Below are positions 14,097 through 58,094 of a stretch of 64,000 nt of DNA, one piece after another. A model generated the notes under the pieces. The model was not told the DNA's origin. It worked only from the letters and a program-made list of their open reading frames with translations, and searched no databases. How positions within the stretch are numbered: position 1 is the stretch's first letter; the number at the start of each line of letters is the position of its first letter. Location: IMG/VR virus record IMGVR_UViG_3300020200_000004; one strand, 5' to 3'. A program made the translations under genes and the position numbers. Source of the DNA: a virus (Duplodnaviria > Heunggongvirae > Uroviricota > Caudoviricetes).

Positions 14097-14131
14097 TTGA
14101 CAGCTAAAGGAAAAAGTGTTATAGAATTATT

Positions 14132-16104: not shown

Positions 16105-16169
16105 TTTTTTGAAATTTTGAAATATAATACAGGAAGCACTCTTTCTAACAACTCAATGGAGTATCCTGT

Positions 16170-17047: not shown

Positions 17048-17087
17048 TAATTTATTATGCCTGTCCAGAGGCTATAGTATCTGGAAG
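17041..17087 (+). repeat. 47-bp intergenic repeat element A, copy 2
   Basis: Identical to 10346-10392. Confidence 0.6.
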
Positions 17088-17142
17088 AAGTATGGAATGA
17101 ACCTAAATATAAGCAACAGAGATTAAATTAAGTGTAAACTTA

Positions 17143-17178
17143 GTGTCGTTTTATTCTTACGGGAATGGAAGGATGCAC
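17143..17178 (+). promoter_or_regulatory. Conserved 36-nt hairpin element, copy 2 (spans the start codon of the IDO-like gene)
   Basis: gtgtcgttttattcttacgggaatggaaggatgcac; 32 of 36 nt identical to 5327-5362. Confidence 0.5.
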
Positions 17179-18283
17179 AGCAACAGAGAGCAAACTAATG
17201 CGAAGTCACTTTTGGGATGTAGTGGTAAGGGGATTTTTACCCATTCGTGATCCTGTATTAAAGGGAGATTTATTTGAAAAAATACCCCTTACAGGATCAA
17301 GGAATGAAATATTTAATTATTTAAATCAAAATAAAGTTGATTTAACAGCATTTGTAAACAATGAAGAAGATTGTGAACGGCTCTTTAGAATGTATTCCTA
17401 TGCTGCTAGTGCCTTTATTCATTCCCAAAGTGAACCGCCTACAAACGTTCTACCAAAAGAAATAGCCGTACCTTTAGTTAAGTTCTCTCAGATACTAGAC
17501 AGAAAGCCAATTCTATCATATGGTAGCTATTGTTTAAATAATTGGCAAAGAATAGATGTTACCAAACCTGTAGAACTAGGTAATATTCGTTTATTGACGC
17601 ATTTTTGCCCTATTCCATATAATCGGGATGAAGCTTGGTTTATTCTGGTGCATGTGGATATAGAAAATTCAGCAGCTTTGGGTATTTTTGCTTGTCATTC
17701 GATGCTTTTGCAAGACCCCTTAACACCTGAATTTGCTTTCTTTGTGCTTAATCAGATAAAAACCAGTCTGATTAACATGAATAAAGCCTTGAATAGAATG
17801 CCAGAAGAATGTAGCCCAGAGCATTATTTTTTATTCGTTAGACCTTATATATTCAGCTTTGAAAATGTTGTTTATGAAGATTGTTTTCATGGTAAACCGC
17901 AAACTTTTAGGGGTGAAACAGGGGCACAAAGTTCTATAATACCTGCTTTTCTTGCAGCATTGGAGATAAAGCATAAAGATTCAATGTTGACTCATCATTT
18001 GCAGGAAATGCGGGATTATATGCCTAAAGACCATCGCATTTTCCTGAATAATTTAGAAAATAGTTCTGTGCATCTAAGGGAAGTGGCTAAGAAAGACAGC
18101 AAGTTAAAGCCTTTATATAATGAATGTTTAATGCAACTTATTGATTTTAGAGAAAAACATTTTGAATATGCTATTAACTATATTGCTAATAAAGTAGAGA
18201 ATCCTAAAGGTACAGGAGGAACACCTTATGTGCCTTGGCTTAAGCAGCTGAAAGAAGAGACTAAGCAGCAAATTTTGGAGTAA
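17165..18283 (+). CDS. Indoleamine 2,3-dioxygenase (IDO)-family heme dioxygenase-like protein
   Basis: GETGAQSS, LQEMRDYMPKDHRIFL and KGTGGTPYVPWLKQLK parallel human IDO1 GGSAGQSS, LQDMRRYMPPAHRNFL and KGTGGTDLMNFLKTVR; a His is present where IDO has its proximal His. Confidence 0.65.
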   Translation: MEGCTATESKLMRSHFWDVVVRGFLPIRDPVLKGDLFEKIPLTGSRNEIFNYLNQNKVDLTAFVNNEEDCERLFRMYSYAASAFIHSQSEPPTNVLPKEIAVPLVKFSQILDRKPILSYGSYCLNNWQRIDVTKPVELGNIRLLTHFCPIPYNRDEAWFILVHVDIENSAALGIFACHSMLLQDPLTPEFAFFVLNQIKTSLINMNKALNRMPEECSPEHYFLFVRPYIFSFENVVYEDCFHGKPQTFRGETGAQSSIIPAFLAALEIKHKDSMLTHHLQEMRDYMPKDHRIFLNNLENSSVHLREVAKKDSKLKPLYNECLMQLIDFREKHFEYAINYIANKVENPKGTGGTPYVPWLKQLKEETKQQILE

Positions 18284-18285
18284 AC

Positions 18286-18420
18286 ATGAAAGATTATTTA
18301 AGGACAATCAAGCTTGGCATCGGAGAAGGTGAACCCGGCAAGCAAGCATGTTGGATGAGTGCCCTTTCTGCGCATTTGGGCGGGGAATGGACAGATAGTT
18401 TGGAATGTGTTGATCCTTAA
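18286..18420 (+). pseudogene. Truncated member of a local paralog family (44 aa: MKDYLRTIKLGIGEGEPGKQACWMSALSAHLGGEWTDSLECVDP*)
   Basis: N-terminal homology to 47403.. and 48392..48943; stops where the paralogs continue. Confidence 0.45.
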
Positions 18421-19034
18421 ACTTTGAGGCAAATGGTCCTGGGTGGAGAGGAGACAATTATTATTTAACAGAAAAAGAAAATAATTGTTCGGTTTGTGGA
18501 GCTACAGAAGAATTAACTCGGCATCATGTTGTTCCATACAGTTATAGAAGATATTTCCCAGAAGAAGTAAAATCACATAATCATCATGATATTGTGCTTT
18601 TATGTGTTCCTTGCCATACCGAATATGAACGTGAGGCACGTAAATTTAAAAAGCAAATTATAATTAAGTATGGCATTTCGGTTAATGGTACTGGATATCA
18701 ATATGACCATGAAATAGCAATAGTTAAAAGGTTTTCTGGTACTTTATTGGAACATGCCGCTTTAATCCCACAAGCTAGAAAAGAGGAAATGTACCAAGTT
18801 ATAAAGGATTATTGCAAAAAAGATGTGACGACAGAAGATATGAAAAAGCTGGTTGAGACTTTAAACCCACATACATACTCAGAAGATCATTTAAAACATG
18901 CAGATGCAATTGCAAAACTGGTTGATATTCAGGAATTTGCTAGAGAATGGAGACAGCATTTTATTGATTCTATGCAGCCTAAATTCTTACCGCTTCATTG
19001 GGATGTGAATCGTTCTGTTTATAAGGAAAATTAG
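18414..19034 (+). CDS. HNH endonuclease domain ORF without a canonical start (frameshifted fusion to the upstream paralog fragment, or a remnant)
   Basis: Open frame reads ...DNYYLTEKENNCSVCGATEELTRHHVVPYSYRRYFPEEVKSHNHHDIVLLCVPCH (HNH motif). The N-terminal stretch DNYYLT resembles paralog NDLYYMDNK. No ATG, and no GTG/TTG before the internal GTG 18594 at which the ORF track opens this ORF. Confidence 0.45.
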   Translation, partial: SLNFEANGPGWRGDNYYLTEKENNCSVCGATEELTRHHVVPYSYRRYFPEEVKSHNHHDIVLLCVPCHTEYEREARKFKKQIIIKYGISVNGTGYQYDHEIAIVKRFSGTLLEHAALIPQARKEEMYQVIKDYCKKDVTTEDMKKLVETLNPHTYSEDHLKHADAIAKLVDIQEFAREWRQHFIDSMQPKFLPLHWDVNRSVYKEN

Positions 19035-19456
19035 TGTATTCATTTATATTTGCATGCATTTTAGATTTTGTAGTAATGAAGAAAGTAAGAAAGGTTCTTT
19101 TTCCACTCAAGACACCATCTGAAATCTTCCTAGCTAGAATGAAAAAATATGCTAGTTGTCTTATAAGGCATAGTTATTTTTATGTTAGTTCAGAGGAAAC
19201 GAGTAATTTTTTCAATATTTGTGCAGATTACCTTGATGCCATAAATACAGAAAAATGTCCTGATATGGCTAATTTTGTATTAAAAGAAAAATTAGAATTA
19301 ATAGACGCAAAATGGTATGCATTAACATATAGCTCATACAATGGTGAAAGTAATTATTTGACTTATACTGCTGAAGTATGGTATTATCGCATAACAGGAG
19401 ACGAAGACCCACTGGCTTCTAAAATGAGATATGTGGATATTTTAAAGAAGGTTTAA
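19034..19456 (+). CDS. Hypothetical protein (140 aa)
   Basis: ORF. Confidence 0.35.
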   Translation: MYSFIFACILDFVVMKKVRKVLFPLKTPSEIFLARMKKYASCLIRHSYFYVSSEETSNFFNICADYLDAINTEKCPDMANFVLKEKLELIDAKWYALTYSSYNGESNYLTYTAEVWYYRITGDEDPLASKMRYVDILKKV

Positions 19457-19457
19457 C

Positions 19458-21386
19458 ATGTTATTTTATGGTATTGTTGCTGGAATTTGCTTTGTAGCTT
19501 TTCTGATCTTTGTATGGCTTACTACAAGATACATACCTAATAACAAAATAGGTATTGTAGAGAAACTATGGTCCAGAAAAGGATCATTAGGCGAAGGTGA
19601 AATTGTTGCCTTGAAAGGTGAAATTGTTGCCTTGAAAGGTGAAGCTGGATTCCAACCAGAAGTCCTAAGAGGCGGCATTCACTTTGGTTATTGGAGATGG
19701 CAATATGCTGTCCACAAACGCAATTTGATTACTATCAGGCAAGGCAAGATTGGTTATGTATTCTCTAGAGCCGGACAGCCTTTATCTGCAACTCAAACAT
19801 TATGTAAATATGTTGAATGTAATAACTTCCAGAACGTAAAAGCTTTTCTTTCTAATGGCGGTCAGAAAGGTCGTCAAAGAGCAATTTTGCGTGAAGGTGT
19901 ATATGTTATCAACACAGCTATTTTATCTGTAATCACTGAACGGATTGTTTATTCAATGATTACGGATAAAGATGTTAACTTAAATGAATGGCAAAGTCAG
20001 CTAGCAGCAGTAAAAGGTTTTGATCCTATTATCATTGGTCATTCTTCCAATGAATCAGATGATATTGGCATTGTGACTACTCATGATGGTCCTGCTTTGG
20101 AAGATGGAGAAATCATTGCACCGGCAGTAGGCACATCTTCTTCTGATTCAAATTACCATAATAATTACCAAGATATTGAAGCGTTCTTAAGAGCGGGTGG
20201 CAGAAGAGGTTTGCAATATGCCACACTTTTAGATGGTACTTATTTCATTAATAGGTGGTTTGCTACTGTTGAACATATTAAAAAGGCAGTTGTTCCTATA
20301 GGTTCAGTAGGAGTTGTAGTAAGCTATTATGGGCGTCAAGGGGCTGATACTTCTGGAACTCAATTTAGGCATGGCGAAAGGGTACATCAAGGCGAAAAGG
20401 GTGTTTGGGAATCTACTCTTGGGCCTGGCAAGTATCCCTTTAACAATTATGCAGGCCAGATCATTTTAGTACCTACTACCAATTTCGTGCTGCATTGGGT
20501 GACAGGCAAGAGTGAATCGCACAAATATGATGAAAGTTTAAAGTCTATAGATTTAATTACTAAAGATGCTTATGAACCACTTTTGCCTTTAAGTGTGGTG
20601 GTGCATATTGATTACCAGAAAGCACCTAGCGTTATTCAAAGATTTGGTGATGTTAAGCAGCTTATTACGCAGACTTTAGACCCATTGTTAAGTGCTTATT
20701 TCAGGGACGTGGCACATAAAAAGACTATGCTTGAGTTAATCCATTCTAGAGACGAAATTCAAGCGCAAGCCAGGAAGGAATTGCAGGCTAAGTTTTCCCA
20801 ATTTGATATTGAATGTGTTGATGTTTTAATTGGTCGCCCCGAATCCTATTCAGATGATGGCAAAATTGAGAATTTACTTGAGCAATTGAGGTTAAGGCAA
20901 TTAAGTCTTGAACAAATTGAGACTTATAATAAGCAAAAGCAAGCAGCAACTACAGAACAGACTTTAAATGAAGCTTTGGCCCATGCTGCTATGCAAAAGG
21001 AATTAACGGGTTCTAAGATTCATATTGAGATTACTTCTAATAATGCCGAAGCTGATCTTGCTAAGGCCAAGAAAGAGGCAGAAAAGACGATTGTTATTGC
21101 AAAAGCAGATAGCGAAAAGGCTAAATTGCAAGGTGTTGGTGATAGTTCTAAAATTCAATTGGTAGGTAGTAGTGAAGCTGAGGTTTTGCAGAAGAAGATT
21201 GCTTCTTTTGGTGATTCTAAACTTTATGCTTTGTCCGTGATTGCTGAAATGCTTTCTAATAGCAAGCAACCTTTAGTGCCTTCTACTATGTTGGGTGGCA
21301 ATAATTCTAATACATTATTGACTGCTTTAATGTCCTTAATGGTTAATGAAAAATTAAGTGTTTCTCCACAAGAGCCTCAAATTTAA
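19458..21386 (+). CDS. SPFH/band-7 flotillin-like membrane protein
   Basis: N-terminal TM helix, SPFH-like core (IGIVEKLWS...QPEVLRGGIHF), C-terminal Ala/Lys/Glu-rich coiled coil like YqiK/flotillin; contains a 2x21-bp tandem repeat (GEIVALK x2). Confidence 0.6.
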   Translation: MLFYGIVAGICFVAFLIFVWLTTRYIPNNKIGIVEKLWSRKGSLGEGEIVALKGEIVALKGEAGFQPEVLRGGIHFGYWRWQYAVHKRNLITIRQGKIGYVFSRAGQPLSATQTLCKYVECNNFQNVKAFLSNGGQKGRQRAILREGVYVINTAILSVITERIVYSMITDKDVNLNEWQSQLAAVKGFDPIIIGHSSNESDDIGIVTTHDGPALEDGEIIAPAVGTSSSDSNYHNNYQDIEAFLRAGGRRGLQYATLLDGTYFINRWFATVEHIKKAVVPIGSVGVVVSYYGRQGADTSGTQFRHGERVHQGEKGVWESTLGPGKYPFNNYAGQIILVPTTNFVLHWVTGKSESHKYDESLKSIDLITKDAYEPLLPLSVVVHIDYQKAPSVIQRFGDVKQLITQTLDPLLSAYFRDVAHKKTMLELIHSRDEIQAQARKELQAKFSQFDIECVDVLIGRPESYSDDGKIENLLEQLRLRQLSLEQIETYNKQKQAATTEQTLNEALAHAAMQKELTGSKIHIEITSNNAEADLAKAKKEAEKTIVIAKADSEKAKLQGVGDSSKIQLVGSSEAEVLQKKIASFGDSKLYALSVIAEMLSNSKQPLVPSTMLGGNNSNTLLTALMSLMVNEKLSVSPQEPQI

Positions 21387-21972
21387 GGATAAAGAAATGA
21401 CTTATATTGAACTTGTTAAAGCGGTGGCGAACGATATCGAAATAGCTTTTATTAGCTATGGATTAACTCCTGTTTTCGGGAGTTTTGGGGATGGAATAAA
21501 CACTGGCTGTGCTGTTACAGCTTTATCAAAGAATAGTAGTCTTAAACGTGATCATGGCAACAAGCATTTTGATGTAATAGCTGCCAAGGCGCTTCAGGAA
21601 AAATATAGTTTGGGACATTTCAGCACAGAGGTAGTTCACGGTATTGTTTCAGGCTTTGACTGTTGGCCTGGCGATGAAATTTTTGATGCCTGTTCGGATA
21701 TTGTTGGGCGCAAGACCTTCACTCTTAAGTTTAGACATGCCAAAGAATTTATAGGTTTTCAACTTTTGTCTGATCCGAAAGCGTGGATAGACGACACTTT
21801 CAAATTAAGCAGGAAACTTAAAGAGACTGGAATATTAATTGGAATGCTTGTTCGACTCCGTTTGTCCAGAAAGATCAAGAAAAATGCTTACATGGATAAA
21901 AACAAAGAAAGAAAGCTTGAAGATAGTAATAGCAATCGGATTAAAGAAGACAGCGATTGTTGTTGCGTCTGA
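21358..21972 (+). CDS. Hypothetical protein, paralog family B member 1
   Basis: VKAVANDIEIAFISYGLTPVFGSFGDGINTGCAVTAL is paralogous to 22500..22988. Confidence 0.4.
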   Translation: MFLHKSLKFKDKEMTYIELVKAVANDIEIAFISYGLTPVFGSFGDGINTGCAVTALSKNSSLKRDHGNKHFDVIAAKALQEKYSLGHFSTEVVHGIVSGFDCWPGDEIFDACSDIVGRKTFTLKFRHAKEFIGFQLLSDPKAWIDDTFKLSRKLKETGILIGMLVRLRLSRKIKKNAYMDKNKERKLEDSNSNRIKEDSDCCCV

Positions 21973-22528
21973 TAATGATTCAATTTTAGACGAAGTATCT
22001 GATTATGGGCCTTTTGTAAATGAAATAGGCATATTAAAACACAAGGAATATGATAATGTGCCTGGACTTTATTTATGGCAAGGAACGTGGGCGGTGGTGC
22101 CTTCATCTGGATTTGCAGAAGAGGGTGCGGATTCATATGTTGAGTACGAAGGGGAAATGACTTGCCTGCTAAATGCTGAGAATTTTTTGGATAAAGAAAT
22201 TGGGGAATATGAATCTGAGAAAGAAATTGCAGAAATTACTGAACCAAGCTCCCACGCAAAAGTAGTTATAGCAATTGGTTTAAGCCAAAAAGCAATTGTA
22301 CTTTCTTCTGATAACGAGAGGGTATTGCAGGATATTGAAGATATAAGCTCTGATATAGATGACTTAGGCATTTTTAAACCTAAAGATTACAATAATCCCC
22401 CTGGACTTTATTTATGGGAAGGTGAAGTCCATTGTAAATTTGATTGGAATGACGAAGATGCTTATCTAGAATTTAAAGGTGAATTAACTAGCTTGGCAAA
22501 TGCAGGAAAAGCTTATGATGATTGTTGA
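21839..22528 (+). CDS. Hypothetical protein with internal tandem domain duplication
   Basis: Two ~90-aa repeats (VIAIGLKKTAIVVASDND...PGLYLWQGTW / VVIAIGLSQKAIVLSSDNE...PGLYLWEGEV); the start may lie downstream of 21839. Confidence 0.4.
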   Translation: MECLFDSVCPERSRKMLTWIKTKKESLKIVIAIGLKKTAIVVASDNDSILDEVSDYGPFVNEIGILKHKEYDNVPGLYLWQGTWAVVPSSGFAEEGADSYVEYEGEMTCLLNAENFLDKEIGEYESEKEIAEITEPSSHAKVVIAIGLSQKAIVLSSDNERVLQDIEDISSDIDDLGIFKPKDYNNPPGLYLWEGEVHCKFDWNDEDAYLEFKGELTSLANAGKAYDDC

Positions 22529-22988
22529 ATTTATCAAAAAGGTAGCTAATGACATTGAAATGGCCTTTATTAGCCAAGGCATAACACCTGTTTTCAAATC
22601 ATGGGGCAATAGCAAGACTACTGGCTGTGCTTTAACTGCATTGAATCTTGCTAATGGCGTAATATTAAGATTTACTTCGCCAGAGGCTTTTAGTGAAACA
22701 TTGAAAACACTTGAAAAATTATATGGTTTATCCTCAAAAGCTGCTTATTGCCTTAGAAGTGGTATTCTTATGGGATATGATAGCAACATTGGAACTAAAT
22801 TAATGCTTTTAACATTTGGAGGGAAAGCGGCTTTCATTAGGGATACTTCAAAGATGAGGATAGACATAGAATTAATCTCTCCTTATGATTATTATTTCGT
22901 AGGCAAACTGATAGGTCAATTAGTTCAGAAAAGAATTCTAAGAAAAGTTAAAGAAGAAACTGTACCTGCTTGTTTAATTGGAGCATAA
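22500..22988 (+). CDS. Hypothetical protein, paralog family B member 2
   Basis: IKKVANDIEMAFISQGITPVFKSWGNSKTTGCALTAL. Confidence 0.4.
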   Translation: MQEKLMMIVEFIKKVANDIEMAFISQGITPVFKSWGNSKTTGCALTALNLANGVILRFTSPEAFSETLKTLEKLYGLSSKAAYCLRSGILMGYDSNIGTKLMLLTFGGKAAFIRDTSKMRIDIELISPYDYYFVGKLIGQLVQKRILRKVKEETVPACLIGA

Positions 22989-23232
22989 AATGACAGTTAT
23001 TGAATTTATTAAAAAAGTGGCTAATGATGGCAAAAAGAAAATCTTAACGCTAATGCTCTTATTATTGAATTTGCAAAGAAATTTAAACATAATATAAAAG
23101 TATTAGGCGAAATGGGAGAATATAGCAAACCAGATTATTTCTTCGCTGGACAATTAATAGGCAAACTCATTCAGAAAAGAATTCTAAGAAAAGTTAAAAA
23201 AGAAACTGTGCCTGCTTTAGTTGGAGTGTAAA
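22989..23232 (+). pseudogene. Decayed third copy of paralog family B
   Basis: MTVIEFIKKVANDGKK... then stops and frame changes; the 3' piece FAGQLIGKLIQKRILRKVKKETVPALVGV matches the end of 22500..22988. Confidence 0.45.
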
Positions 23233-23425
23233 ATGAGTTAGAAAGAAAAAGGACTCCAAGATTAAAGAAGATGCTCGTAATAAAGCCCAAGCCATTTTAG
23301 ATTTCTATATTTCAGCAAAAGTAGATGGCCTAAATGAAATAAAACAAATTTTACATGAAATCCATGATGATATGGGCGGCGATTATGGGTTTTCTGGAGA
23401 TTGGTGGAAAAACACTAAATAGTTA

Positions 23426-24412
23426 ATGGAATTCAAGACCTTTATAGAAAATCAATATAAACTTTTTGGCAAAGATGCTCAAAGAATTACAACAAATGAG
23501 CTAAAACTAGTCTTTTATGAACTAAAGACTCTCATTGGTAACTCTTTCCCAGAAATGGAACTTACAAGGTGGCTTCCCGCTAAAGAAGATCACGGCGATA
23601 TTGATATCCTTGCTCATTCTCGGCAAACACCCGTCAAAGACATTCTTGCAGCTAATTTAGGCAACCAATTAGTCAAATTCAGCAAGAATGGCAACGTCAA
23701 TTCTTTTTTATTCAAAAGCAATCTAATCAACAAAGTCGTTCATGTCGATCTTATTACTTCTCCACCCGATTTGATGGATGCAAAACGTAATTATTATGCC
23801 TTTGGTGATGCCAGCTTTGTAATAGGTGTTATATCTAAAAAACTACATTTTAAATATGGGACAGAAGGGTTCTTTAAGAGATTTAAGGATCAAGGAACAA
23901 TCTGGCACGATATTCCAGTTACTAATAATATGAAAGAAGCCATGTTGATTCTTGGCTTTTCTAATCCTGACCAATTTAATCAAATTAAGACTAATGATGA
24001 TACTGTAGCTTTTATCGCTACCAATCCTTTTATTGATTCCAGTTGGTTTATGCATGAGAATTTAATTTCTAAAGATAAACAGAGCCAGAATCGCAGAAAA
24101 GGCGCTGATTATATTCTTGATAAACTTAAAAGCTTAAATTTAAAAGGTAAAATTACAGATGAAGACTATTTCTTTAAAACCCTTTATCCTGAAAAATATA
24201 AAGAAGTTGAAGAACAAAAGGTAGCATTAAATCAAAAAGCATATGTTAAAGCTTCCAATTATAATGGTTATTGGTTAATGAATAAATTTGGCATTAAGCC
24301 TGGACCGCAAATAGGAAATATATTAAGATTAATGACTCAGAAGTATGGCGATCAATTGGATAATGTGCCAGAACCAGAAGCGATAGAGTTTGTCAAGGGA
24401 ATTATGAAATGA
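23426..24412 (+). CDS. Hypothetical protein, possibly Pol-beta-superfamily nucleotidyltransferase
   Basis: 328 aa; GNSFPEME...HGDIDIL fits the [GS]x9-13 DhDh pattern. Confidence 0.3.
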   Translation: MEFKTFIENQYKLFGKDAQRITTNELKLVFYELKTLIGNSFPEMELTRWLPAKEDHGDIDILAHSRQTPVKDILAANLGNQLVKFSKNGNVNSFLFKSNLINKVVHVDLITSPPDLMDAKRNYYAFGDASFVIGVISKKLHFKYGTEGFFKRFKDQGTIWHDIPVTNNMKEAMLILGFSNPDQFNQIKTNDDTVAFIATNPFIDSSWFMHENLISKDKQSQNRRKGADYILDKLKSLNLKGKITDEDYFFKTLYPEKYKEVEEQKVALNQKAYVKASNYNGYWLMNKFGIKPGPQIGNILRLMTQKYGDQLDNVPEPEAIEFVKGIMK

Positions 24413-24828
24413 CCTTTGAGGAAATTAAGAAAGCATGGTTCAAAGCGAAGATAGGATTTGTTGATGAGTCCGATCTTAGGTTGATTAAATCTGAAGTGTT
24501 TGATGATCGAATATGTATGTTTTATAAGTGTCCATGCGGTAGTGATCATTATGCAATGCGTTTTATGGTACAAGAAGGTTATTCGCAATATCCATCATGT
24601 ATTCTCAATTGTTTTGTTAATAATCATCAATGGGGTATAAAGGTTGCTGATGTTGCCGCTATTATAAAAGAAGAGGAAGAAAAGTATCTTCGACTTATAG
24701 AACGGGCACCAAAGATTATCAAGAAAGTTATTGCCCAACGTGGAATGTCGGAGGAAACATTATTTTTCTTGGAAAATACACATGGCATTGATCGTGAAAT
24801 GGTTTCTATTATAGAATTAAATCTATAA
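24409..24828 (+). CDS. Hypothetical protein (139 aa)
   Basis: ORF. Confidence 0.35.
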   Translation: MTFEEIKKAWFKAKIGFVDESDLRLIKSEVFDDRICMFYKCPCGSDHYAMRFMVQEGYSQYPSCILNCFVNNHQWGIKVADVAAIIKEEEEKYLRLIERAPKIIKKVIAQRGMSEETLFFLENTHGIDREMVSIIELNL

Positions 24829-24869
24829 ATCCTATTGTAAAACAGAGATAAATATGTTATATTTAACTA

Positions 24870-26042
24870 ATGCTTGTAGCAGAACGACATTATATACAAG
24901 AAACACTTGAAATTGTCCGACTATGTACATTAAGCAAAGAACTTTACAATAAATGCAATTTCTTGATGAGGCAAGCATGGTTTATAAATGAAAAATTACC
25001 TAATATAAATTTGCTTGTTCGAGAGACAAAGCCATTAGACTGTTACAAAAACCTTCACAACACCAAAACAGCAGCACAAACAATACGTAAATGTCTTGTA
25101 GATTGGGCAAACTTCCTCAAAACCCTGAAAGCATACAAGAAAGACCCAACAAAATTCAAAACTAGACCTAAACCGCCTTATTATAAAAATAAACTCACAC
25201 AAATTATATTCTTTAATGAAACTATCAAGAAAAGACCATTGAAACAAGATGTAATTACCCCAACGAACAATCTATTTTCAATTAAAAGTGACATTAAAGA
25301 ATTTAAGCAAGTAATGATTACTCCTAAAACATTTGGTTTTATAGTAGACATTCAATATGAAAAAGAAGTCAAGAAAGTAAAAGTAAGCAAGAATAGGTTT
25401 GCCTGTATAGATGTTGGTGTAAATAATTTAGCTACGATAACTTCAAACCAACTGGAGCATCCCATATTGGTTAATGGTCGCATACTAAAAAGCATCAATA
25501 GATTCTATAATAAAAAACCTAATAAGAATAATAGTAGGAAACGTTATTTCCGTATTGAGAATTATTTCCATCATGCTTCTAAATTTATAATTGATTTATG
25601 TATTAAACATAAAATTGGCAAAATCATTATCGGTAAGAATGATGGTTGGAAGCAATTTTCTAAAATACGAAAAGTACAAAACCAAAATTTTCAATATATT
25701 CCTTTTTATAAATTTTTAGATAAGATTAAGTATAAAGCAACATTAGCGGGCATTGAAGTTATATTTACTGAAGAATCATATACAAGTAAAGCAAGTTTCC
25801 TTGACCATGATTCAATACCAACTTATAAAAAAGGCAATAAACCTCCTACTTTTTCTGGTAAAAGAGATAAAGGAATGTATAGAACATTTAGACCTATTCA
25901 TGCTGACGTGAATGGAAGTTTAAACATAGGATGTAAAGTATTCGGGGATAAAGTCTACAAGGCTTTCCCTGATAGGAGCATTGCCGCAATGCCAGTACGA
26001 ATTAATCCATTGAAGATTTTTGCATATAACAGCAAAAATTAG
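24870..26042 (+). CDS. tnpB: TnpB-like protein (OrfB_IS605 family), apparently nuclease-dead (TldR-like)
   Basis: 390 aa. RuvC-I FACIDVGVNNLA and RuvC-III HADVNGSLNIGCK are present. The RuvC-II position reads KIIIGKNDGW (Gly where the catalytic Glu is expected). The zinc-finger cysteines are absent (ESYTSKASFLDHDS...). Confidence 0.65.
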   Translation: MLVAERHYIQETLEIVRLCTLSKELYNKCNFLMRQAWFINEKLPNINLLVRETKPLDCYKNLHNTKTAAQTIRKCLVDWANFLKTLKAYKKDPTKFKTRPKPPYYKNKLTQIIFFNETIKKRPLKQDVITPTNNLFSIKSDIKEFKQVMITPKTFGFIVDIQYEKEVKKVKVSKNRFACIDVGVNNLATITSNQLEHPILVNGRILKSINRFYNKKPNKNNSRKRYFRIENYFHHASKFIIDLCIKHKIGKIIIGKNDGWKQFSKIRKVQNQNFQYIPFYKFLDKIKYKATLAGIEVIFTEESYTSKASFLDHDSIPTYKKGNKPPTFSGKRDKGMYRTFRPIHADVNGSLNIGCKVFGDKVYKAFPDRSIAAMPVRINPLKIFAYNSKN

Positions 26043-26049
26043 ATTAATT

Positions 26050-26240
26050 CTCAAACTTAGATTTATTTATTTCTAGGAACGGTGGACTATTCAATGTTCT
26101 GAGTGTAAAAGACATACTTGGCCCAATTTAGGTGTCAACTGCCCTGCTGGGTGCGATGTTGCTCTTAGTGCATGTTACGCTTGGTGGTATGGATATCAAA
26201 ATGAAAAGTCTTTTGATGCCGTAAAATTGATATACAGTAA
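26050..26240 (+). ncRNA. Candidate omegaRNA / guide-RNA region 3' of TnpB-like gene 2
   Basis: Locally GC-richer, structured segment (gtcaactgccctgctgggtgcgatgttgctcttagtgcatgttacgcttggtgg) immediately downstream of the tnpB-like stop; by analogy with IS200/IS605 right ends. Confidence 0.3.
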
Positions 26241-26268
26241 AGTTAATTGGTTAAAATCTATATAATGC

Positions 26269-27021
26269 ATGCTTTCTTTGCATGCTAGGAAAAAAAGTCC
26301 TCCAGTACCGCCAATTACATTAAGAGAATATTATTTTTCACAAGATAACCAGGCATTTCTATTAAGTGGGCAAGTTGATTTCAATAAGATGATGGCCGGT
26401 ATCAATCTTCCTATAAATTCTCACATCTTAGAAATAGGTTGTTGTACAGGTAGAGTGTTACGCAATTTTTGGCCTGTATTGAAAAAATATAGAGTTGATG
26501 GTTGTGATATAGAACCGGCATATGTTCAATGGTGTAGAGAACATATGAATCCAATGCGATTCTATTTTCCTGAAGAAATTCCTTTAAATACTTATGATTT
26601 TGTTTATTGCCAATCTGTATTTACTCATATTCCAAATCCAATTCCAGATTTATTTAAAATAAGGAAATTTCTCAAGAAAGATGGTTTATTTTATGTAACA
26701 ATTCATGATGAAGTTGATTTAGAAAGAATAAAGGGATTTCCAGAGAAAGAACAGTTACGTCGTTTTATCGAAGACTATGTTAATTTAAATGAATTTCATG
26801 TGTCCACAATCTATTCAATTGCTCTAGAACAAGGAAGAAATTGTAAAGTTTTCTATAACAGAGACTTTTTTGTAAAATTAGCTTCTTATGCTGGATTTAA
26901 ATTAATAAAAATAGTTGACAAAGCACATAGAAATGGCACTACGCAAACTGGACTGTTATTCCGTACATATCTTCAACAAAAATCAGAGGTTTGCATTATT
27001 TTCAAAAAAAGTGTCATTTGA
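26269..27021 (+). CDS. Class I SAM-dependent methyltransferase
   Basis: ILEIGCCTGRVL (motif I), DGCDIEP (motif II acidic), VYCQSVFTHI. Confidence 0.6.
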   Translation: MLSLHARKKSPPVPPITLREYYFSQDNQAFLLSGQVDFNKMMAGINLPINSHILEIGCCTGRVLRNFWPVLKKYRVDGCDIEPAYVQWCREHMNPMRFYFPEEIPLNTYDFVYCQSVFTHIPNPIPDLFKIRKFLKKDGLFYVTIHDEVDLERIKGFPEKEQLRRFIEDYVNLNEFHVSTIYSIALEQGRNCKVFYNRDFFVKLASYAGFKLIKIVDKAHRNGTTQTGLLFRTYLQQKSEVCIIFKKSVI

Positions 27022-27116
27022 TGTTTATTTTTGGAAAACATCTGCTATAATAAAAGTGTAAGGCAAAAGGGCCTTGCGATTTTGCAGTAAAAGACTGCGT
27101 AGAAAAGGAGAACGAA

Positions 27117-28154
27117 ATGTTAGAGCAAATGTTTGAGTCCGTGCGCACACTTCTTAATTCCCACAATCAAGTAATCGGTGAAGGAAATCCTGGGTATGTA
27201 AACCCTGATGAATTTCTTACTGCCATTAAAGTTGCTGGTGGGACAAGTGAAGAAAGATTGAAAAGAATGTCCCATGAGGATATTTTGCATTTTCTTCCAA
27301 AGACTAATTATCTACCTATTATGTTGGCCAAGGATATTGCAAAGGTATTCCGTGGCAATGATAGTGTGAACCATATCGAAACAGATACGGTCGAAGCACA
27401 AAGCCGTAAGCCTGTCACATCTAAAAAGGCTGATAGGATGAGTTTGCGTGAACTTATCCAAAATTATGATCCTGAAGAAAATAATGCTGTTTCCAAGCGG
27501 CTTAAAGAGGTTTCTAGAAATGAACCTTTTATTGTGTTTTCAACTGATAATGCTGTTAATGTTGAAGTTACTTTAAAGTTATTGCTAGAAGTTAAAGGTG
27601 GTTTTGACGGTAGAACCGATTATAAAGTTGGCAATGACATATTTCCAGTCTACAAAGTTGGTGAAAGAACCGATTATTATGTAGATGAGAATCCGCTTTA
27701 TGATAATCGCCCTTTGCGGCCTGATGGTACTTGTGATCAAACAGGAAGGTCATGGGAAGGTGTTGAACTTAAAATAAGGCAGCTAGTCAGGTTGGCTGTA
27801 GCAACTGGAGAACTTCATGTTAGCTTGGAAAATGCAAATAACATCTTGGATATGGTTTTATCTACAGATGCTTGGAGCAAGTTGACAACAAGGTATCGTA
27901 AGGCTACACTTAAGTTTAATGAACTTAGCAAGACTGGCGAATTACCTAAGTTAAAGATGGCATTGGGGGTTGCCCGCAAACGCCCTTTTGAGGATGGGAA
28001 GAAGGTTGTATTTATTAAAGAATCTTCTCCCAAAAACAAGCGTGGCCAACAGAACGCTGGAATTTGGCAGTATCCAATTGGCGGTGGGGTTGCTCATCCT
28101 GATTGCATATACAAAAATGATGGCGGTAAGTGGACGATGAATGTTGAAAAGTAA
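27117..28154 (+). CDS. Hypothetical protein (345 aa)
   Basis: ORF with AAGGAGAA RBS. Confidence 0.4.
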   Translation: MLEQMFESVRTLLNSHNQVIGEGNPGYVNPDEFLTAIKVAGGTSEERLKRMSHEDILHFLPKTNYLPIMLAKDIAKVFRGNDSVNHIETDTVEAQSRKPVTSKKADRMSLRELIQNYDPEENNAVSKRLKEVSRNEPFIVFSTDNAVNVEVTLKLLLEVKGGFDGRTDYKVGNDIFPVYKVGERTDYYVDENPLYDNRPLRPDGTCDQTGRSWEGVELKIRQLVRLAVATGELHVSLENANNILDMVLSTDAWSKLTTRYRKATLKFNELSKTGELPKLKMALGVARKRPFEDGKKVVFIKESSPKNKRGQQNAGIWQYPIGGGVAHPDCIYKNDGGKWTMNVEK

Positions 28155-28161
28155 AACTTTT

Positions 28162-28210
28162 AGCAAGTGCAGGTATTTTAATTGTACCAAGTACCTGCAC
28201 TTGCTTTTTC
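28162..28210 (+). terminator. Rho-independent terminator whose 16-nt loop is motif copy 3 (TTAATTGTACCAAG at 28178-28191)
   Basis: agcaagtgcaggta / tacctgcacttgct 14-bp stem, loop ttttaattgtaccaag, then tttttc. Confidence 0.6.
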
Positions 28211-28239
28211 TTAAAATTTAAATTACAAAGGAAATTAAT

Positions 28240-29004
28240 ATGAAAAAGCAAAAAAAAGACAAGCCTACTACGATTATTTCTGTAATTTTAGATAAAAGCG
28301 GAAGTATGGGCGGGCGTGAAAAAGAAATAGTAGCTGGATATAATGAACAAATCCAGCAAGCTAAATTAAGTTCTAAAGATCAAAATATATTGTTTAATTT
28401 GATTTCGTTTAATGGCGAGGTCAGCGAGCATCATTGGGGTCAAAAAGTAGAAGAATTACAAGAAGCTACAGTTGAAGACTATCAACCTGAAGGATCAACA
28501 GCACTTAGGGATGCTGTAGGTTATACGATAGATAAACTGTTAAAGACTACAGACCCAACTGATCCTAATGTTGCGTATTTAGTTATTATAATGTCTGATG
28601 GTGCCGAAAATGCATCTAGGCATTATTCTCCATATGAATTGCAAAGAGTTAAATCGCAGGCAGAAGAACATAAAAACTTTACTTTCACCTATATGGGATG
28701 TTCAGAGGCAATTGTAAAACAAGTAGCTGCTGAATATTCTATACCGTTGTCAAATTGTGCTGTTTGGAGTAATAACAGTGTAGGCAGTACAGAATTTGCA
28801 TATAAGGCTAGTAATAAGAGAATGAGTGAAAAGTATCTTAGTGCTAGAAGTGTTGGCAAGGGTGTATTAAATGACGTATATAGTGATACAGGTGGCATGG
28901 CTAATTTTGCTCCTGAAGAGGCAGCAGATTCAGTTGTACCAGATGTATCAGTAGTAACACCTGATAAGTTTAATATAACCAATACTGTAGATGTTCAGGG
29001 TTAA
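28240..29004 (+). CDS. von Willebrand factor type A (vWA) domain protein
   Basis: MIDAS-like ILDKSGSMGG near the N-terminus; a second metal-coordinating segment SDGAENAS. Confidence 0.55.
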   Translation: MKKQKKDKPTTIISVILDKSGSMGGREKEIVAGYNEQIQQAKLSSKDQNILFNLISFNGEVSEHHWGQKVEELQEATVEDYQPEGSTALRDAVGYTIDKLLKTTDPTDPNVAYLVIIMSDGAENASRHYSPYELQRVKSQAEEHKNFTFTYMGCSEAIVKQVAAEYSIPLSNCAVWSNNSVGSTEFAYKASNKRMSEKYLSARSVGKGVLNDVYSDTGGMANFAPEEAADSVVPDVSVVTPDKFNITNTVDVQG

Positions 29005-29038
29005 ATAAAAAAGGAACCCCTGTGCAATGGACAAATAA

Positions 29039-29803
29039 ATGAAAAGTGACTTTGCAAAAATCGTAACGGAGAGGCCAAGAGCAGGGGGCGGCTATAAAAA
29101 CCCAAAAGGTTGGAATGCCCGTTCTCAACATCGTACTGCCAATCAATGTGAACAGGAAAACTGGCCCAAAAGGGAAAAAATCCGACAAAAATGGCAGTCC
29201 AGTTTCGGTGAGAAACAATTCACCGATGTTCTTGGCCCTCTCTACGGTTATCTTTTAAAGCAAGTTGGGCGTCATTGGGATGATGTATTTTCCGAAATCT
29301 GCGAGAATCTACCAGCCAATAACACCAATACCAGCCATGTCAGGGACCACGTTTTCGATTTCGTTGAGGTTGACGTGGTTATGGTTGATGGCGTTCCTTG
29401 TTATCGCAGAAGCTTTGGAAAATATACTTGGTTAAAGAAACAAGAATGGACTCCCTTGAGCGTCTATGGAAGTCGCCAATTCCAATTGTATGTTAATCCC
29501 GAAAATGGTTTACTCTGCAAACTTGAGAAAAAGAAAGAAGTCAAGAAGGACAAAAAAGAAGGCAAAGGTGTCATTGTAGACGATACCCATCAATACCATA
29601 AGATTGATGGAGTTTGGTATCTGTTGGCACTTAAGATCGTTAACCGTCATCCTGAATATTACGAACTTTTCTATGATGTTGGTTACAAAAAGAACTTTCG
29701 TGACTCTGAAATGTTCCGCCATTATGGAAAACGTTGCTATTGCATTCACAAAACTCAATTAAACAAACGACAAATCAAAAAGGCTAAATTAAATGGAGAA
29801 TAG
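29039..29803 (+). CDS. Hypothetical protein (254 aa)
   Basis: ORF. Confidence 0.4.
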   Translation: MKSDFAKIVTERPRAGGGYKNPKGWNARSQHRTANQCEQENWPKREKIRQKWQSSFGEKQFTDVLGPLYGYLLKQVGRHWDDVFSEICENLPANNTNTSHVRDHVFDFVEVDVVMVDGVPCYRRSFGKYTWLKKQEWTPLSVYGSRQFQLYVNPENGLLCKLEKKKEVKKDKKEGKGVIVDDTHQYHKIDGVWYLLALKIVNRHPEYYELFYDVGYKKNFRDSEMFRHYGKRCYCIHKTQLNKRQIKKAKLNGE

Positions 29804-30218
29804 GCCATTAATAGGTGTCGCTACTTGTATTTTCAAAGACGGTCAAGTTTTATTAGGTTTGCGTAAAGGTAAGCATGCCAATAATACATGGGGATTTCCT
29901 GGCGGGCATCTTGAATTCGGAGAAAAAATAGAAGATTGTGCCAGAAGAGAAATAGCTGAAGAAGTTGATGTGGAAGTAAATTGTTTAAGTTTTATATCAG
30001 TTGTTGGCAATGTTTATGAAGAAGAAAATAAACATTATTTGACAATACTTTATACAGCCAATTATGTTTCTGGTGATTTAACAGTAAAAGAACCAGATAA
30101 ACACTTGGAATGGAAATGGTTTCCCATCTGTGATTTGCCAGAAAACTTAATGCCTCCTGCCAAGAAATTTTTGAAGGAACTTAGTAAAGATACTTTGTGT
30201 TCGGTTATAATTGAATGA
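29793..30218 (+). CDS. NUDIX hydrolase
   Basis: Nudix box GFPGGHLEFGEKIEDCARREIAEEVDV (Gx5Ex7REUxEExGU). Confidence 0.8.
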   Translation: MENRPLIGVATCIFKDGQVLLGLRKGKHANNTWGFPGGHLEFGEKIEDCARREIAEEVDVEVNCLSFISVVGNVYEEENKHYLTILYTANYVSGDLTVKEPDKHLEWKWFPICDLPENLMPPAKKFLKELSKDTLCSVIIE

Positions 30219-46077: not shown

Positions 46078-46151
46078 GCCCCTGTAGTTTAATTGTGCAA
46101 AACGTGCTACTTTAGATAGCTAAGATGTGGGTTCGAATCCTGCCAGGGGCG
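46078..46151 (+). tRNA. tRNA with predicted anticodon UUA (ochre/UAA-suppressor-type)
   Basis: Cloverleaf by hand: acceptor gcccctg/caggggc, D-stem gttt/aaac, anticodon stem gcta/tagc with loop cTTTAga (U33, anticodon TTA, R37), variable loop aagat, T-arm gtggg-ttcgaat-cctgc. One t-t mismatch at the top of the anticodon stem. Confidence 0.5.
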
Positions 46152-52309: not shown

Positions 52310-53233
52310 ATGAATGATAAGGTAAAAGGAGCATTGTGGGGAGGAGTTGTGGGAGATTCAGCTGGGATGTGCGCCGAATTCCTTCCGAGAGGGAGTTTTC
52401 CACCAATTACTGGATATAGAAGCGGTGGGCCATTCAATTTAGAAAAAGGGGCATTCACCGATGACACTTCTATGGCCTTGTGTTTGGCTGATAGCATTGC
52501 CACTGTTGGTTGGGACTTGAAAGATCAATTGAAACGGTATGTAGATTGGTATGAAAATGGAAAATATTCAGTAAATGGTAAATGTTTTGATATTGGCTGT
52601 ACAACTAGGCATGCTTTAAATGAATTTATTCGTACTGGAGAAGTTAATGCAGACCTAGACGAAAATGCTTCTGGCAATGGTTGCATAATGAGACTTTCTG
52701 CCGTTCCAGCCTATTATAGATATCTTTTCCCTCACTATTTGCCTGAATTAATGGTAAAGGCCGAAGAGTCTAGTGCAACAACTCACGGAAGCGAACAATG
52801 CAAATCTAGTTGTCGTTATATGACTGCAATTATTTGTGCTTTTATTCATGGAGATTATACAAAAGATGAAGTTTTATCAACAAATTGGAGAATACTAAAA
52901 GAAATTGAAAACTTAAAGCCTTTGCATCCTTTAGTTAAAACTATTGCAAATGGCAGTTTTAAAACAAAAACTTTAGAAGAAATTGATTCATCAGGATGGG
53001 TGATTGCTACGCTTGAAGCGGCAATTTATTCATTTTATCATTCGAATAGTTTTGAAGAAGCAGTATTTCGTTCTTGCAACATGGGATTAGATGCAGATAC
53101 GGTAGGTTGCGTTACAGGCCAAATTGCTGGTGCGTATTATGGTTTTGATGCTATCCCCAAGGAACTAATTGAAGGTTTGAGTAGAAAAGACATGCTGGAA
53201 GAATATTTCGGCAAGTTATATAAAGGAAACTAA
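52310..53233 (+). CDS. ADP-ribosylglycohydrolase (ARH/DraG family)
   Basis: GALWGGVVGDSAGM and GAFTDDTSMALCLADS N-terminal signatures; C-terminal GLDADTVGCVTGQIAGAYYG. Confidence 0.8.
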   Translation: MNDKVKGALWGGVVGDSAGMCAEFLPRGSFPPITGYRSGGPFNLEKGAFTDDTSMALCLADSIATVGWDLKDQLKRYVDWYENGKYSVNGKCFDIGCTTRHALNEFIRTGEVNADLDENASGNGCIMRLSAVPAYYRYLFPHYLPELMVKAEESSATTHGSEQCKSSCRYMTAIICAFIHGDYTKDEVLSTNWRILKEIENLKPLHPLVKTIANGSFKTKTLEEIDSSGWVIATLEAAIYSFYHSNSFEEAVFRSCNMGLDADTVGCVTGQIAGAYYGFDAIPKELIEGLSRKDMLEEYFGKLYKGN

Positions 53234-53934: not shown

Positions 53935-54624
53935 ATGATTAATGAACTAGGTCCGACTGGAGATTTTCGCTGTCCAAAATGCAAAAACAGCCTCCAAAAT
54001 AGCGTTGTTGGGGACAAATATCGTTGCGCAAATTGTAAGCACGATTGGAAACCTACCATTGTCGATTGGGCATTAAAGATTGCAACCGAAGCGCATATTT
54101 ATCAAAAGAGGAAATGGGCTACTGGAACGGCAGAAGTTCCTTATATTGTCCATCCAATCCGTGTTGCTAAAAAGATTGCTACGTTAAAAGGCACTACTGA
54201 AGTTGACGTTGCAGCAGCTTTAGTCCATGATTTAGCGGAAGATGTTGCTATTCCCCAAAAGAAAGTTGCAGAATATAATCAGCTTGTTGAAGAAAAGTGT
54301 GGTAAGTTAGTTCTTGAATTGATGTGGGAACTTACTAATCCAACGGAAGGACCGGAATGGGCAGATGTTCCAAGGACTGAGAAGAGAAAGCATGATTGGC
54401 AGCATTTAGCTCAAGTTTCTGATCGTGCCAAACGTATTAAAATGGTTGATCGCTGGGATAATGTCAGTGACTTTGGCAATGCTCCGTCCAGGCTTGTTTT
54501 CAAATACATCCCAGAAAGTTATCATCTTTTAAGTATGACTCGTTATGTTGATGAAGAAATGGGTCAAGAATTAGAAGATGCAATTAAGGCATTAGAAAAA
54601 CGTTATAAACACAAAAATGGCTAA
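53935..54624 (+). CDS. HD-domain (p)ppGpp hydrolase (small alarmone hydrolase, RelA/SpoT-HD-like) with N-terminal zinc ribbon
   Basis: EAHIYQKRKWATGTAEVPYIVHPIRVA...AAALVHDLAEDV...IKMVDRWDNV parallels the SpoT HD GEPYI.HPL.VA..AALLHDVVEDT...IKLADRLHNM; CPKC/CANC pairs at the N-terminus. Confidence 0.7.
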   Translation: MINELGPTGDFRCPKCKNSLQNSVVGDKYRCANCKHDWKPTIVDWALKIATEAHIYQKRKWATGTAEVPYIVHPIRVAKKIATLKGTTEVDVAAALVHDLAEDVAIPQKKVAEYNQLVEEKCGKLVLELMWELTNPTEGPEWADVPRTEKRKHDWQHLAQVSDRAKRIKMVDRWDNVSDFGNAPSRLVFKYIPESYHLLSMTRYVDEEMGQELEDAIKALEKRYKHKNG

Positions 54625-55352: not shown

Positions 55353-56192
55353 ATGCCAATTTTAGCCAAAACAGCTAAAAAGCTTGGAAAATCTGCAACA
55401 CCACGTTCTGATCGTAAAGAACTAGTAATGCTACGTGTTTCTATAGCTAAACTTGCTAGAAAATTAAAAGTAGATTATGGAGATTTATGTTTTACTGATG
55501 CAATATTTATGTTTTACTGATGCAATTTATGAAGAAATTTGCGCAAAAGCTAGAAGAAAAGAGCGGGGCTGGAACAGACTTGTAAGTGAATGTTATAAGA
55601 AAATTACAAAGATTCATAGGCAAATTTGTCAAATGCTGGCTATAACAAAGGAGCTTAAAATTGAAGGTTATGAAGTACAAGAATTATGATGTTTATTTGC
55701 AATACAAAAAGTATTATAATGGCAGAGTGTGCATTCAACTGACGCATGCACATGACCATGATCCAGTTGCAATTGCTACAGTAAATTTACCTGATGATGA
55801 ATTGGGCGAAGGGGAAGTTTTCATCAAGAACTATTCAGAGAATGAAGGAATGCTTGAATGGCTTGAGAAAAATGGCATTGTGGAACGAACCGGGAGGGTA
55901 GTACCAAGTGGATATGTAACAATTCCAGTTTGCAGGTTGCTTAAGTAATGGCTTTAATATCTTATATTACATGCTCTGTTTGTCAGCAAGAGAAAACAGT
56001 TAGCCACAGTGCATCTGATTGGCCTCCTGAAGTTTGTGATGAATGTGTAGAGAAGAAAAAAGAACAGGATAAAGAAGTGTATCTGGCGTGGTGCGCTAGT
56101 TTGCCGATTGAGGAAAGATTGGTAAAGATTGAGACGGCTTTATATGATTTGGAAAGAAAACCGCCGCCTTTTGATAGTAATACGCTTATAGG

Positions 56193-56672
56193 ATGAAATA
56201 TATGTATACGTTTGAGGAACATTTAGACAACTTAATTAGACATATAGAATTAGTAAGAGAAGCCTGTATTTTAATGGGCAAGAGGCTTATAGCACAAGGT
56301 AGAAAAGATCATGGACGATTATTGATAATGCGGGGGCATATGCATGATGTAAGCAAATTCACTGGCATAGAATTTGACTACCTTCACGTTGGTCCAGATG
56401 TAAATCAAGTAGAATTAGAGGATATGCAAGAATTAGTTGGAGGCTATATTGAACCTCTTACTTTTGAAGGTTTTACAGGCTATGTCAACGAAGAAGGCAA
56501 AATGATGGGGTTGATTTATAATGAATTAGCTACAACTTTTTGCTTCAAAAATAACCTTGGCTTGAGAGATGATGATTATATAGTTGGCAATTTGCTTTTA
56601 CTAGGCCCAATTGATGAAAACGGCGATGATACAGATGTGCCTCATTTTGTTCAAAAGAATCTAGGTTTTTAG
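56193..56672 (+). CDS. Hypothetical protein (159 aa)
   Basis: ORF. Confidence 0.35.
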   Translation: MKYMYTFEEHLDNLIRHIELVREACILMGKRLIAQGRKDHGRLLIMRGHMHDVSKFTGIEFDYLHVGPDVNQVELEDMQELVGGYIEPLTFEGFTGYVNEEGKMMGLIYNELATTFCFKNNLGLRDDDYIVGNLLLLGPIDENGDDTDVPHFVQKNLGF

Positions 56673-58023: not shown

Positions 58024-58094
58024 GGCCCCATAGCTTAAGAGGAAAGCAGGGTGCTTATAACGCCAAGACGGTAGTGCGACTCTACCTGGGGCTA
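58024..58094 (+). tRNA. tRNA, predicted anticodon UAU (Ile, AUA-reading); short
   Basis: Acceptor ggcccca/tggggct, D-arm gctt-aagagga-aagc (GG in loop), anticodon loop cTTATAa, T-arm ggtag-tgcgact-ctacc; the anticodon stem has one mismatch and one G-U pair. Confidence 0.45.

Follow-up and report, generated by a model that had tools for sequence, protein, structure and literature searches.

The 64,000-nucleotide stretch analysed here (the window) belongs to the Caudoviricetes record IMGVR_UViG_3300020200_000004 of IMG/VR. On its plus strand, positions 53935..54624 hold a complete open reading frame (ORF) of 229 amino acids that begins with ATG and ends with TAA, exactly where a preliminary description of this DNA had placed it. 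Its product is, as read from sequence and a predicted model, a small alarmone hydrolase (SAH), an HD enzyme of the RelA/SpoT type that stands alone and carries an N-terminal zinc ribbon. The gene is laid out as follows.

53935..54624, plus strand: SAH ORF, N-terminal zinc ribbon followed by the SAH domain, 229 amino acids (ORF call).
53965..54048, plus strand: predicted zinc-ribbon module, residues ~11-38, C13-P-K-C16 ... C31-A-N-C34 (sequence, alignment and model).
54070..54486, plus strand: HD_4 domain, residues 46-184 (Pfam match).
54109..54111, plus strand: R59, invariant in the clade and aligned with Mesh1 R24.
54151..54153, plus strand: H73 of PYIVHP, invariant and aligned with the Mesh1 metal ligand H35.
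54226..54243, plus strand: H98-D99-L-A-E102-D103, the HD ligands and ED dyad, with the four named residues invariant.
54448..54462, plus strand: D172-R-W-D-N176, with D172 at least 90% conserved and N176 invariant.

The ORF is tightly packed between its neighbours. Its start overlaps the stop of a 61-amino-acid upstream ORF by 8 nucleotides (ATGATTAA), and its stop overlaps the start of a 92-amino-acid downstream ORF by another 8 (ATGGCTAA). A scan from 51500 to 57500 turned up no terminator-like site between genes; its one candidate falls within the SAH ORF, and one is fewer than shuffled sequence yields. The two overlaps and the lack of an intergenic terminator-like site make the SAH gene a link in a translationally coupled block. 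Codon 1 is the only in-frame ATG, GTG or TTG ahead of the HD domain, so that ribbon and HD domain form one polypeptide. Recoding of stop codons, which could undermine the ORF call, was considered and no sign of it was seen: TAA is the commonest stop in the window, closing 61 of 113 plus-strand ORFs of at least 60 amino acids, and the ORF structure fits the standard code.

Several models place the protein among the RelA/SpoT homologues (RSHs). The RelA/SpoT-type HD model of Pfam (HD_4, PF13328) scores 33.5 bits over residues 46-184, above its cutoff of 27.2 (E = 4.4e-8), while the generic HD model (PF01966) stays under its cutoff. In PHROGs the protein matches phrog_990, 'metal-dependent phosphohydrolase' (E = 2e-16), and of the NCBIfam model TIGR00691 (spoT_relA) only the N-terminal hydrolase part is matched. 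Searched singly against PDB sequences, the protein hits the SAH of L. levettii, human MESH1 and RelSeq. A clade profile built from the protein and 29 relatives (30 sequences) was run against the sequences of solved structures. Drosophila Mesh1 (1.1e-18), human Mesh1 (1.5e-18) and the hydrolase domain of the long Rel of T. thermophilus (5.5e-18) are all matched with their catalytic motifs in register. Mesh1 (1e-18) is the nearest solved structure, ahead of the P. aeruginosa SAH (1.2e-8).

The active site is intact. The 30-sequence alignment shows no variation at H54, R59, H73, H98, D99, E102, D103, D175 or N176, and D172 is kept in at least 90% of the sequences. In the PDB-sequence and clade-profile alignments the metal ligands H73, H98, D99 and D172 correspond to Mesh1 H35, H61, D62 and D122. 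The catalytic dyad E102-D103 corresponds to E65 and D66, the conserved arginine R59 to R24, and the conserved asparagine N176 to N126. All eight residues, which make up the H...HD...D metal tetrad, the ED dyad and the conserved Arg and Asn of Mesh1, are thus present. No RelA_SpoT, TGS or ACT domain was matched in the protein by Pfam or NCBIfam. It is a hydrolase-only RSH enzyme, and not strictly a single-domain one owing to its 39-residue zinc-ribbon extension.

These results bear out the preliminary description in every point on the enzyme that could be checked. It had proposed an RSH-type HD hydrolase, which agrees with the HD_4 score above cutoff, the Mesh1 profile match and the SAHs that head the structural matches. 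It had proposed that a synthetase domain is missing, and Pfam and NCBIfam detect none. The HD His and Asp residues, on whose conservation it had staked the assignment, are like the ED dyad invariant or nearly so across the 30 sequences. Among the motifs that it quoted, H54, HPIRVA (73-78) and IKMVDRWDNV (168-177) are found as given; AALLHD..ED was a slight misreading of AALVHDLAED (94-103).

The predicted fold agrees with this assignment. An AlphaFold2 model run with the 30-sequence alignment has a predicted local distance difference test score (pLDDT) of 91.6 and a predicted template modelling score (pTM) of 0.88. The model shows an all-helical SAH core from about residue 41 to residue 229, preceded by 40 residues of short beta elements and hairpins with pLDDT 61-87. 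The best 40 Foldseek matches in the PDB are all RSH hydrolases. SAHs stand at the top with target-normalised template modelling (TM) scores of 0.70-0.82, and the hydrolase domains of long Rel/SpoT enzymes come next. The leading matches comprise human MESH1 (9CHY, 5VXA, 3NR1), Drosophila Mesh1 (3NQW, target-normalised TM 0.82), the P. aeruginosa SAH (6YVC, target-normalised TM 0.79-0.80), RelH (7QOD) and the L. levettii SAH (7QOE). Identity to characterised SAHs in the structural alignments is 17-26%. Against predicted viral structures (BFVD) Foldseek returns many phage and giant-virus analogues annotated as HD or '(p)ppGpp hydrolase' proteins, among them those of Erwinia phage Alexandra, Klebsiella phage FBKp24, Caulobacter phage CcrSC and Clandestinovirus. 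This spread over phages and giant viruses indicates that SAH-like proteins are common in large viruses.

A partner synthetase was sought with Pfam in 67 ORFs of the window, which are nearly all those of at least 100 amino acids together with the smaller neighbours of the SAH gene. None carries a RelA_SpoT synthetase domain (PF04607), a result that covers the window, which is a part of the phage genome. At the loci of relatives, too, no synthetase was seen. Within the visible DNA the gene is an orphan and not a component of a toxin-antitoxin pair.

The N-terminal extension is the one unusual feature of the protein. An N-terminal zinc ribbon had been proposed in the preliminary description, and by sequence it is present: C13-x2-C16 and C31-x2-C34 give the pattern CxxC-x14-CxxC and bring four of the five cysteines of the protein into 22 residues. 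At the cysteine frequency of the window (1.9%), four or more would fall into one given 22-residue stretch with a probability of ~8e-4. The two CxxC knuckles, with short strands predicted around them, provide four predicted zinc ligands. Curated zinc-ribbon families are reached only below threshold, the best Pfam model being Zn_ribbon_IS1595 with 18.3 bits against a cutoff of 25.4.

Residues 1-39 are an extension relative to the rest of the family. All 29 aligned relatives, including those of 57-62% identity, start at about query residue 40, and among the 150 best representatives not one aligns to residues 1-36. In none of 178 fetched SAH relatives does the N-terminus carry paired CxxC knuckles spaced as in a ribbon. 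A homologue search with the 46-amino-acid ribbon alone yielded no candidates, a result that reflects the word-index limit of the search, and back-translated pattern scans of viral and metagenome contigs uncovered no further ribbon-SAH fusion. The only other copy lies on a 2,153-bp JGI contig (sample 3300020221) that is near-identical to the window. In this second assembly of one and the same phage population the fused ORF is again unbroken. As far as the searches reach, the ribbon is unique and is seen in one phage only. From the alignments it appears to have been added recently to what is otherwise a standard SAH. A literature search, judged from titles and abstracts, yielded no account of a fusion between a zinc ribbon and an SAH.

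The sole difference between the JGI contig and the window is three adjacent bases, CTT versus ACA, at contig positions 1365..1367 (window 54331..54333), which changes L133 to T. A whole-codon change at a family-invariant residue in otherwise identical DNA is odd.

Two other origins or occurrences of the ribbon were considered and set aside. A tblastn alignment from query residue 13 seemed to extend the ribbon to SAHs of Erwinia jumbo phages; it proved an artefact, as the alignment crossed a stop codon upstream of the annotated start, and the actual proteins begin at the HD domain. Fusion with an upstream gene finds no trace at the loci of the two closest relatives (L001 and L007), which have no zinc-ribbon ORF nearby. 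In a huge-phage relative (L004), a separate ORF at 3711..3977, some 2 kb upstream of the SAH gene, encodes a CPKC...CQGCKSDW protein that stands alone. The similarity of this protein to the ribbon is weak and generic (pairwise E = 0.009).

Cysteine-rich appendages of other kinds occur on distant SAHs, at the C-terminus in P0049 (208-234) and P0129 (230-263) and at the N-terminus in P0059 and P0116. The segments CAGCKHEWRP of P0129 and CQGCKSDW of the L004 protein resemble CANCKHDWKP of the query over 10 residues only, and both likenesses look like a generic ribbon signature. The appendages on distant SAHs and the stand-alone protein of L004 may mark a recurrent association or a coincidence.

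The relatives of the enzyme itself form a restricted group. A word-index search with the SAH returned 31 homologues, and an exhaustive search returned 3009 representatives at E <= 1e-3 and 7 at E <= 1e-30; with so few at the stricter threshold, the clade immediately around the protein is a small one. Contigs of 373, 390, 595 and 669 kb carry relatives, all of them in phage-like settings. The 390- and 373-kb contigs are IMG/VR viral contigs, and the 595-kb one is LR756511, a GenBank record of an 'uncultured phage'. The clade is, going by these relatives, divergent, small and associated with huge phages.

The surroundings of the gene vary from relative to relative. On a 29-kb contig it directly follows rIIB and an rIIA homologue (L008 2653..6549), and on the 669-kb contig it comes after a PTH2 peptidyl-tRNA hydrolase and an AstE/AspA-like gene (L006 4852..6651). 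On a 55-kb contig it lies near DUF5131, a UvrD helicase and an RNA ligase. Across the loci of the relatives no conserved neighbour was found beyond phage backbone genes. The immediate coupled neighbours of the SAH gene in the window have no detectable domains and are not conserved beside its relatives.

The window is, judging by its gene content, part of a large T4-like or jumbo phage. It is AT-rich (~36% GC), nearly all of its genes lie on the plus strand, and their products include rIIA at full length (phrog_612, E = 2.9e-117), an AAA protein resembling a clamp loader, endonuclease VII, an HNH protein, a sigma-70 region 2 protein and DUF5131. The phage origin that the preliminary description had assumed is supported by rIIA, the clamp loader and the dense co-directional genes. 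A megablast search with 5 kb around the SAH gene gave no match in 50,697 phage records, so that no close relative is among them. PADLOC defence-system models matched neither the SAH nor its coupled neighbours.

Other genes in the window act, by their domains, on nucleotides or their derivatives. An ADP-ribosylglycohydrolase (PF03747, 4e-63) is encoded at 52310..53233 (plus strand), some 700 bp upstream of the SAH gene and separated from it by two small ORFs. At 6077..6502 lies the gene of a Macro-domain protein (2.6e-13) and at 29793..30218 that of a NUDIX hydrolase (1.9e-23), both on the plus strand. Together with the SAH, these three could erase ADP-ribose or nucleotide-derived signals or modifications, which makes them candidates for counter-defence. 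A short way downstream of the SAH block, an 82-amino-acid protein at 55948..56196 (plus strand) has a ribbon of its own, CxxC-x17-CxxC. It is followed by a DUF5662 and DUF3846 protein at 56193..56672 (plus strand), and a DUF4313 protein is encoded at 55661..55948.

Further from the gene, an indoleamine 2,3-dioxygenase at 17165..18283 (plus strand; PF01231, E = 5e-58) is an unusual auxiliary metabolic gene for a phage. Two TnpB/Cas12f-like genes, at 480..1706 (minus strand) and 24870..26042 (plus strand), match Cas12f1-like_TNB, OrfB_IS605 and phrog_506 'transposase'. In one or two ORFs within 1744..29803, the domains ArdC-N and MPTase-PolyVal (zincin) recall anti-restriction proteins of the ArdC type; a VWA protein, the sigma-70 region 2 protein and DUF5131 belong to the same batch of ORFs. 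A tRNA at 46078..46151 (plus strand; Rfam tRNA, 57.4 bits), called 'tRNA-Stop' by ARAGORN, has the anticodon TTA, which would read the UAA stop. As TAA is the commonest stop and the ORFs fit the standard code, a role for a UAA suppressor tRNA is unexplained. A second tRNA at 58024..58094 (plus strand; 53.6 bits in Rfam), missed by ARAGORN, has by eye the anticodon loop CTTATAA and may be a tRNA-Ile(UAU).

A comparison with known enzymes shows where the protein belongs. Like PaSpo of Salmonella phage SSU5 and PbcSpo of phage PVP-SE1 (PMC7229694), it is a stand-alone RSH hydrolase of a lytic phage with no adjacent synthetase, and it shares their proposed role, the degradation of alarmones or toxSAS products to escape growth arrest. 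Unlike them, it adds an N-terminal ribbon, and it is so divergent from them that tblastn of a phage collection does not connect them even at E <= 1. With Mesh1/MESH1 (HDDC3; 3NR1, 3NQW, 5VXA, 9CHY) it shares the best profile match (1e-18), a target-normalised TM of 0.72-0.82 and the eight active-site residues. Mesh1/MESH1 is, in contrast, a eukaryotic cellular enzyme with a reported role as an NADPH phosphatase and without a ribbon, and identity is 23-26%.

The bacterial SAHs of P. aeruginosa (6YVC), C. glutamicum (RelH, 7QOD) and L. levettii (7QOE) have the same fold and catalytic-domain size (target-normalised TM 0.70-0.80). These SAHs, including XccSAH of X. campestris, are single-domain hydrolases acting on (p)ppGpp and (p)ppApp. 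They differ from the phage protein in being chromosomal housekeeping or self-resistance genes without an N-terminal extension, at 17-25% identity.

Long RSHs of the Rel/SpoT type (1VJ7, 6S2U, 7QPR) have a homologous HD domain with identical catalytic motifs. They add synthetase, TGS, zinc-finger (ZFD) and ACT domains as well as regulation by the ribosome, whereas the phage protein has the hydrolase domain only. The ZFD of long RSHs is C-terminal and the ribbon N-terminal; no homology was seen between the two. With the (p)ppApp-specific hydrolase of the Aph1 type (7SMG), the N-terminal third alone aligns (profile positions 3-69, E = 4.4e-8). The TM scores of 0.43-0.44 (query-normalised) and 0.66 (target-normalised) are poorer than those to SAHs, and similarity does not extend over the full length. 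No synthetase toxin lies nearby in the window, as one would in a type IV module of toxSAS and SAH. The phage enzyme Atd1 (bioRxiv 10.1101/2022.06.09.495361) also degrades a host alarmone as a counter-defence, the role proposed for the present protein. It is a MazG-like pyrophosphatase that depletes (p)ppGpp, and with a fold unrelated to HD it is a functional analogue only.

From homology we infer the substrates of the enzyme, and with them the probable timing of its action and its biological role. With a probability of about 0.7, it is a phage SAH-class, Mn2+-dependent 3'-pyrophosphohydrolase that acts against stringent arrest or against the products of RSH toxins. The H73 / H98-D99 / D172 tetrad would hold the metal, the E102-D103 dyad would activate water, and R59 and N176 would position the nucleotide. 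The enzyme would thereby remove the 3'-pyrophosphate from (p)ppGpp, probably also from (p)ppApp, in an Mn2+-dependent manner. It would be produced by a large lytic phage from a tightly packed, translationally coupled accessory block, and during infection it would keep the host out of the stringent, growth-arrested state. Alternatively, it may undo the products of RSH toxins that act in abortive infection.

Published experiments back such a role for other phage SAHs. PaSpo and PbcSpo neutralise all five of the toxSAS toxins tested against them, CapRel, PhRel, PhRel2, FaRel and FaRel2 (PMC7229694), and PaSpo detoxifies CapRel during expression (PMC9712102). MESH1 and the ATfaRel SAH restore tRNA that has been pyrophosphorylated at its CCA end (bioRxiv 10.1101/2021.04.30.441581). 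An unrelated phage attack on the same pathway is that of the T7 portal protein Gp8, an inhibitor of RelA and SpoT. That phages bypass alarmone-based abortive infection with hydrolases was explicitly proposed in 2020 (Jimmy et al., PMC7229694). The suggestion of the preliminary description that the enzyme could blunt these host responses matches that work on other phage SAHs and is therefore already published, not new.

Some points weigh against this reading. For this protein and its clade it is a reading from homology. With only 17-26% identity to characterised SAHs, substrate preference is unpredictable, and the authors annotating another phage SAH hold the same view, that it cannot be predicted from sequence (PMC12846349). 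Either role would depend on the host, on its toxSAS systems and the strength of its stringent response, and no conserved partner gene favours any particular pathway. The ribbon, a singleton, offers no comparison from which purifying selection could be read.

The ribbon is the starting point of an unlikely alternative, a dedicated anti-toxSAS/CapRel enzyme whose main substrate would be tRNA pyrophosphorylated at its 3'-CCA end instead of free alarmones, with the ribbon as an RNA-binding handle. Zinc ribbons often bind nucleic acids, and the Cys-rich appendages of P0049, P0129, P0059 and P0116 hint at recurrent fusions. Phage SAHs do neutralise the tRNA-targeting toxSAS CapRel, PhRel, PhRel2 and FaRel2 (PMC7229694), but these SAHs do the job without a ribbon, which is thus not required. 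The ribbon moreover occurs in one phage only, its similarity to other ribbons comes down to one 10-residue knuckle in each case, and RNA binding by it is purely conjectural here. Nothing shows that the ribbon matters. As a guess, its likeliest task would be to direct the enzyme to a partner protein or to a nucleic acid, and the stronger proposal, that it is a functional module turning a generic alarmone hydrolase into a specialised counter-defence enzyme, is quite unlikely. Such a module might, for example, hold tRNA for the HD site, which would then efficiently strip off the 3'-pyrophosphate that toxins of the CapRel or FaRel2 type add, or it might dock on the ribosome or on a host RSH enzyme.

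A metabolic role can also be imagined, in which the protein, like metazoan MESH1, would mainly be a phosphatase of NADPH, or of a 2'- or 3'-phosphorylated nucleotide such as PAPS, and would reshape host cofactor pools. Mesh1 is the best profile match, complexes of MESH1 with PAPS and NADPH are among the top structural matches, XccSAH hydrolyses NADPH and controls NADH levels, and other enzymes of nucleotides and ADP-ribose abound in the window (NUDIX, Macro, ADP-ribosylglycohydrolase). Such a role is distinctly improbable, however: XccSAH also hydrolyses alarmones, it was as an efficient hydrolase of (p)ppGpp that human MESH1 was originally identified (bioRxiv 10.1101/2021.04.30.441581), and both assayed phage SAHs act against alarmone and toxSAS toxicity (PMC7229694). 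It is very improbable that the SAH serves as a type IV antitoxin guarding the phage or a lysogen from a toxSAS that the phage itself would encode in another part of its genome. An antitoxin of this kind is the ATfaRel SAH, and phages do encode toxSAS such as PhRel, PhRel2 and CapRel (PMC7229694), but the scan of 67 ORFs and the loci of relatives gave no synthetase, and the domain-less coupled neighbours are not retained beside relatives. A generic or inactive HD-superfamily phosphohydrolase with no tie to alarmone chemistry is barely credible. The modest single-sequence E-value for HD_4 (4.4e-8) and automatic phage annotations that in some cases read only 'metal-dependent phosphohydrolase' would allow it, but HD_4 passes its cutoff where PF01966 does not, the RSH-specific ED dyad, R59 and N176 are invariant, and the best 40 structural matches are RSH hydrolases without exception.

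Both the phage-encoded stand-alone SAH and the counter-defence hypothesis are already known, and the present protein is a divergent new member. Its practical value is modest, that of one more candidate for toxSAS neutralisation. If the ribbon is functional, it would be a natural example of the targeting of a promiscuous hydrolase, and the appendages of P0049, P0129, P0059 and P0116 would, should the targeting proposal be true, mark a recurrent and undescribed class of 'targeted' SAHs. The presence of the Macro, NUDIX and ADP-ribosylglycohydrolase genes in the same window suggests an arsenal for erasing nucleotide-derived signals or modifications. Alarmone and RSH chemistry is a battleground of bacteria and phages, on which the stringent response, abortive infection by toxSAS and CapRel, and (p)ppApp toxins are deployed, and to the phage counter-measures known so far the gene adds a divergent SAH clade associated with huge phages.

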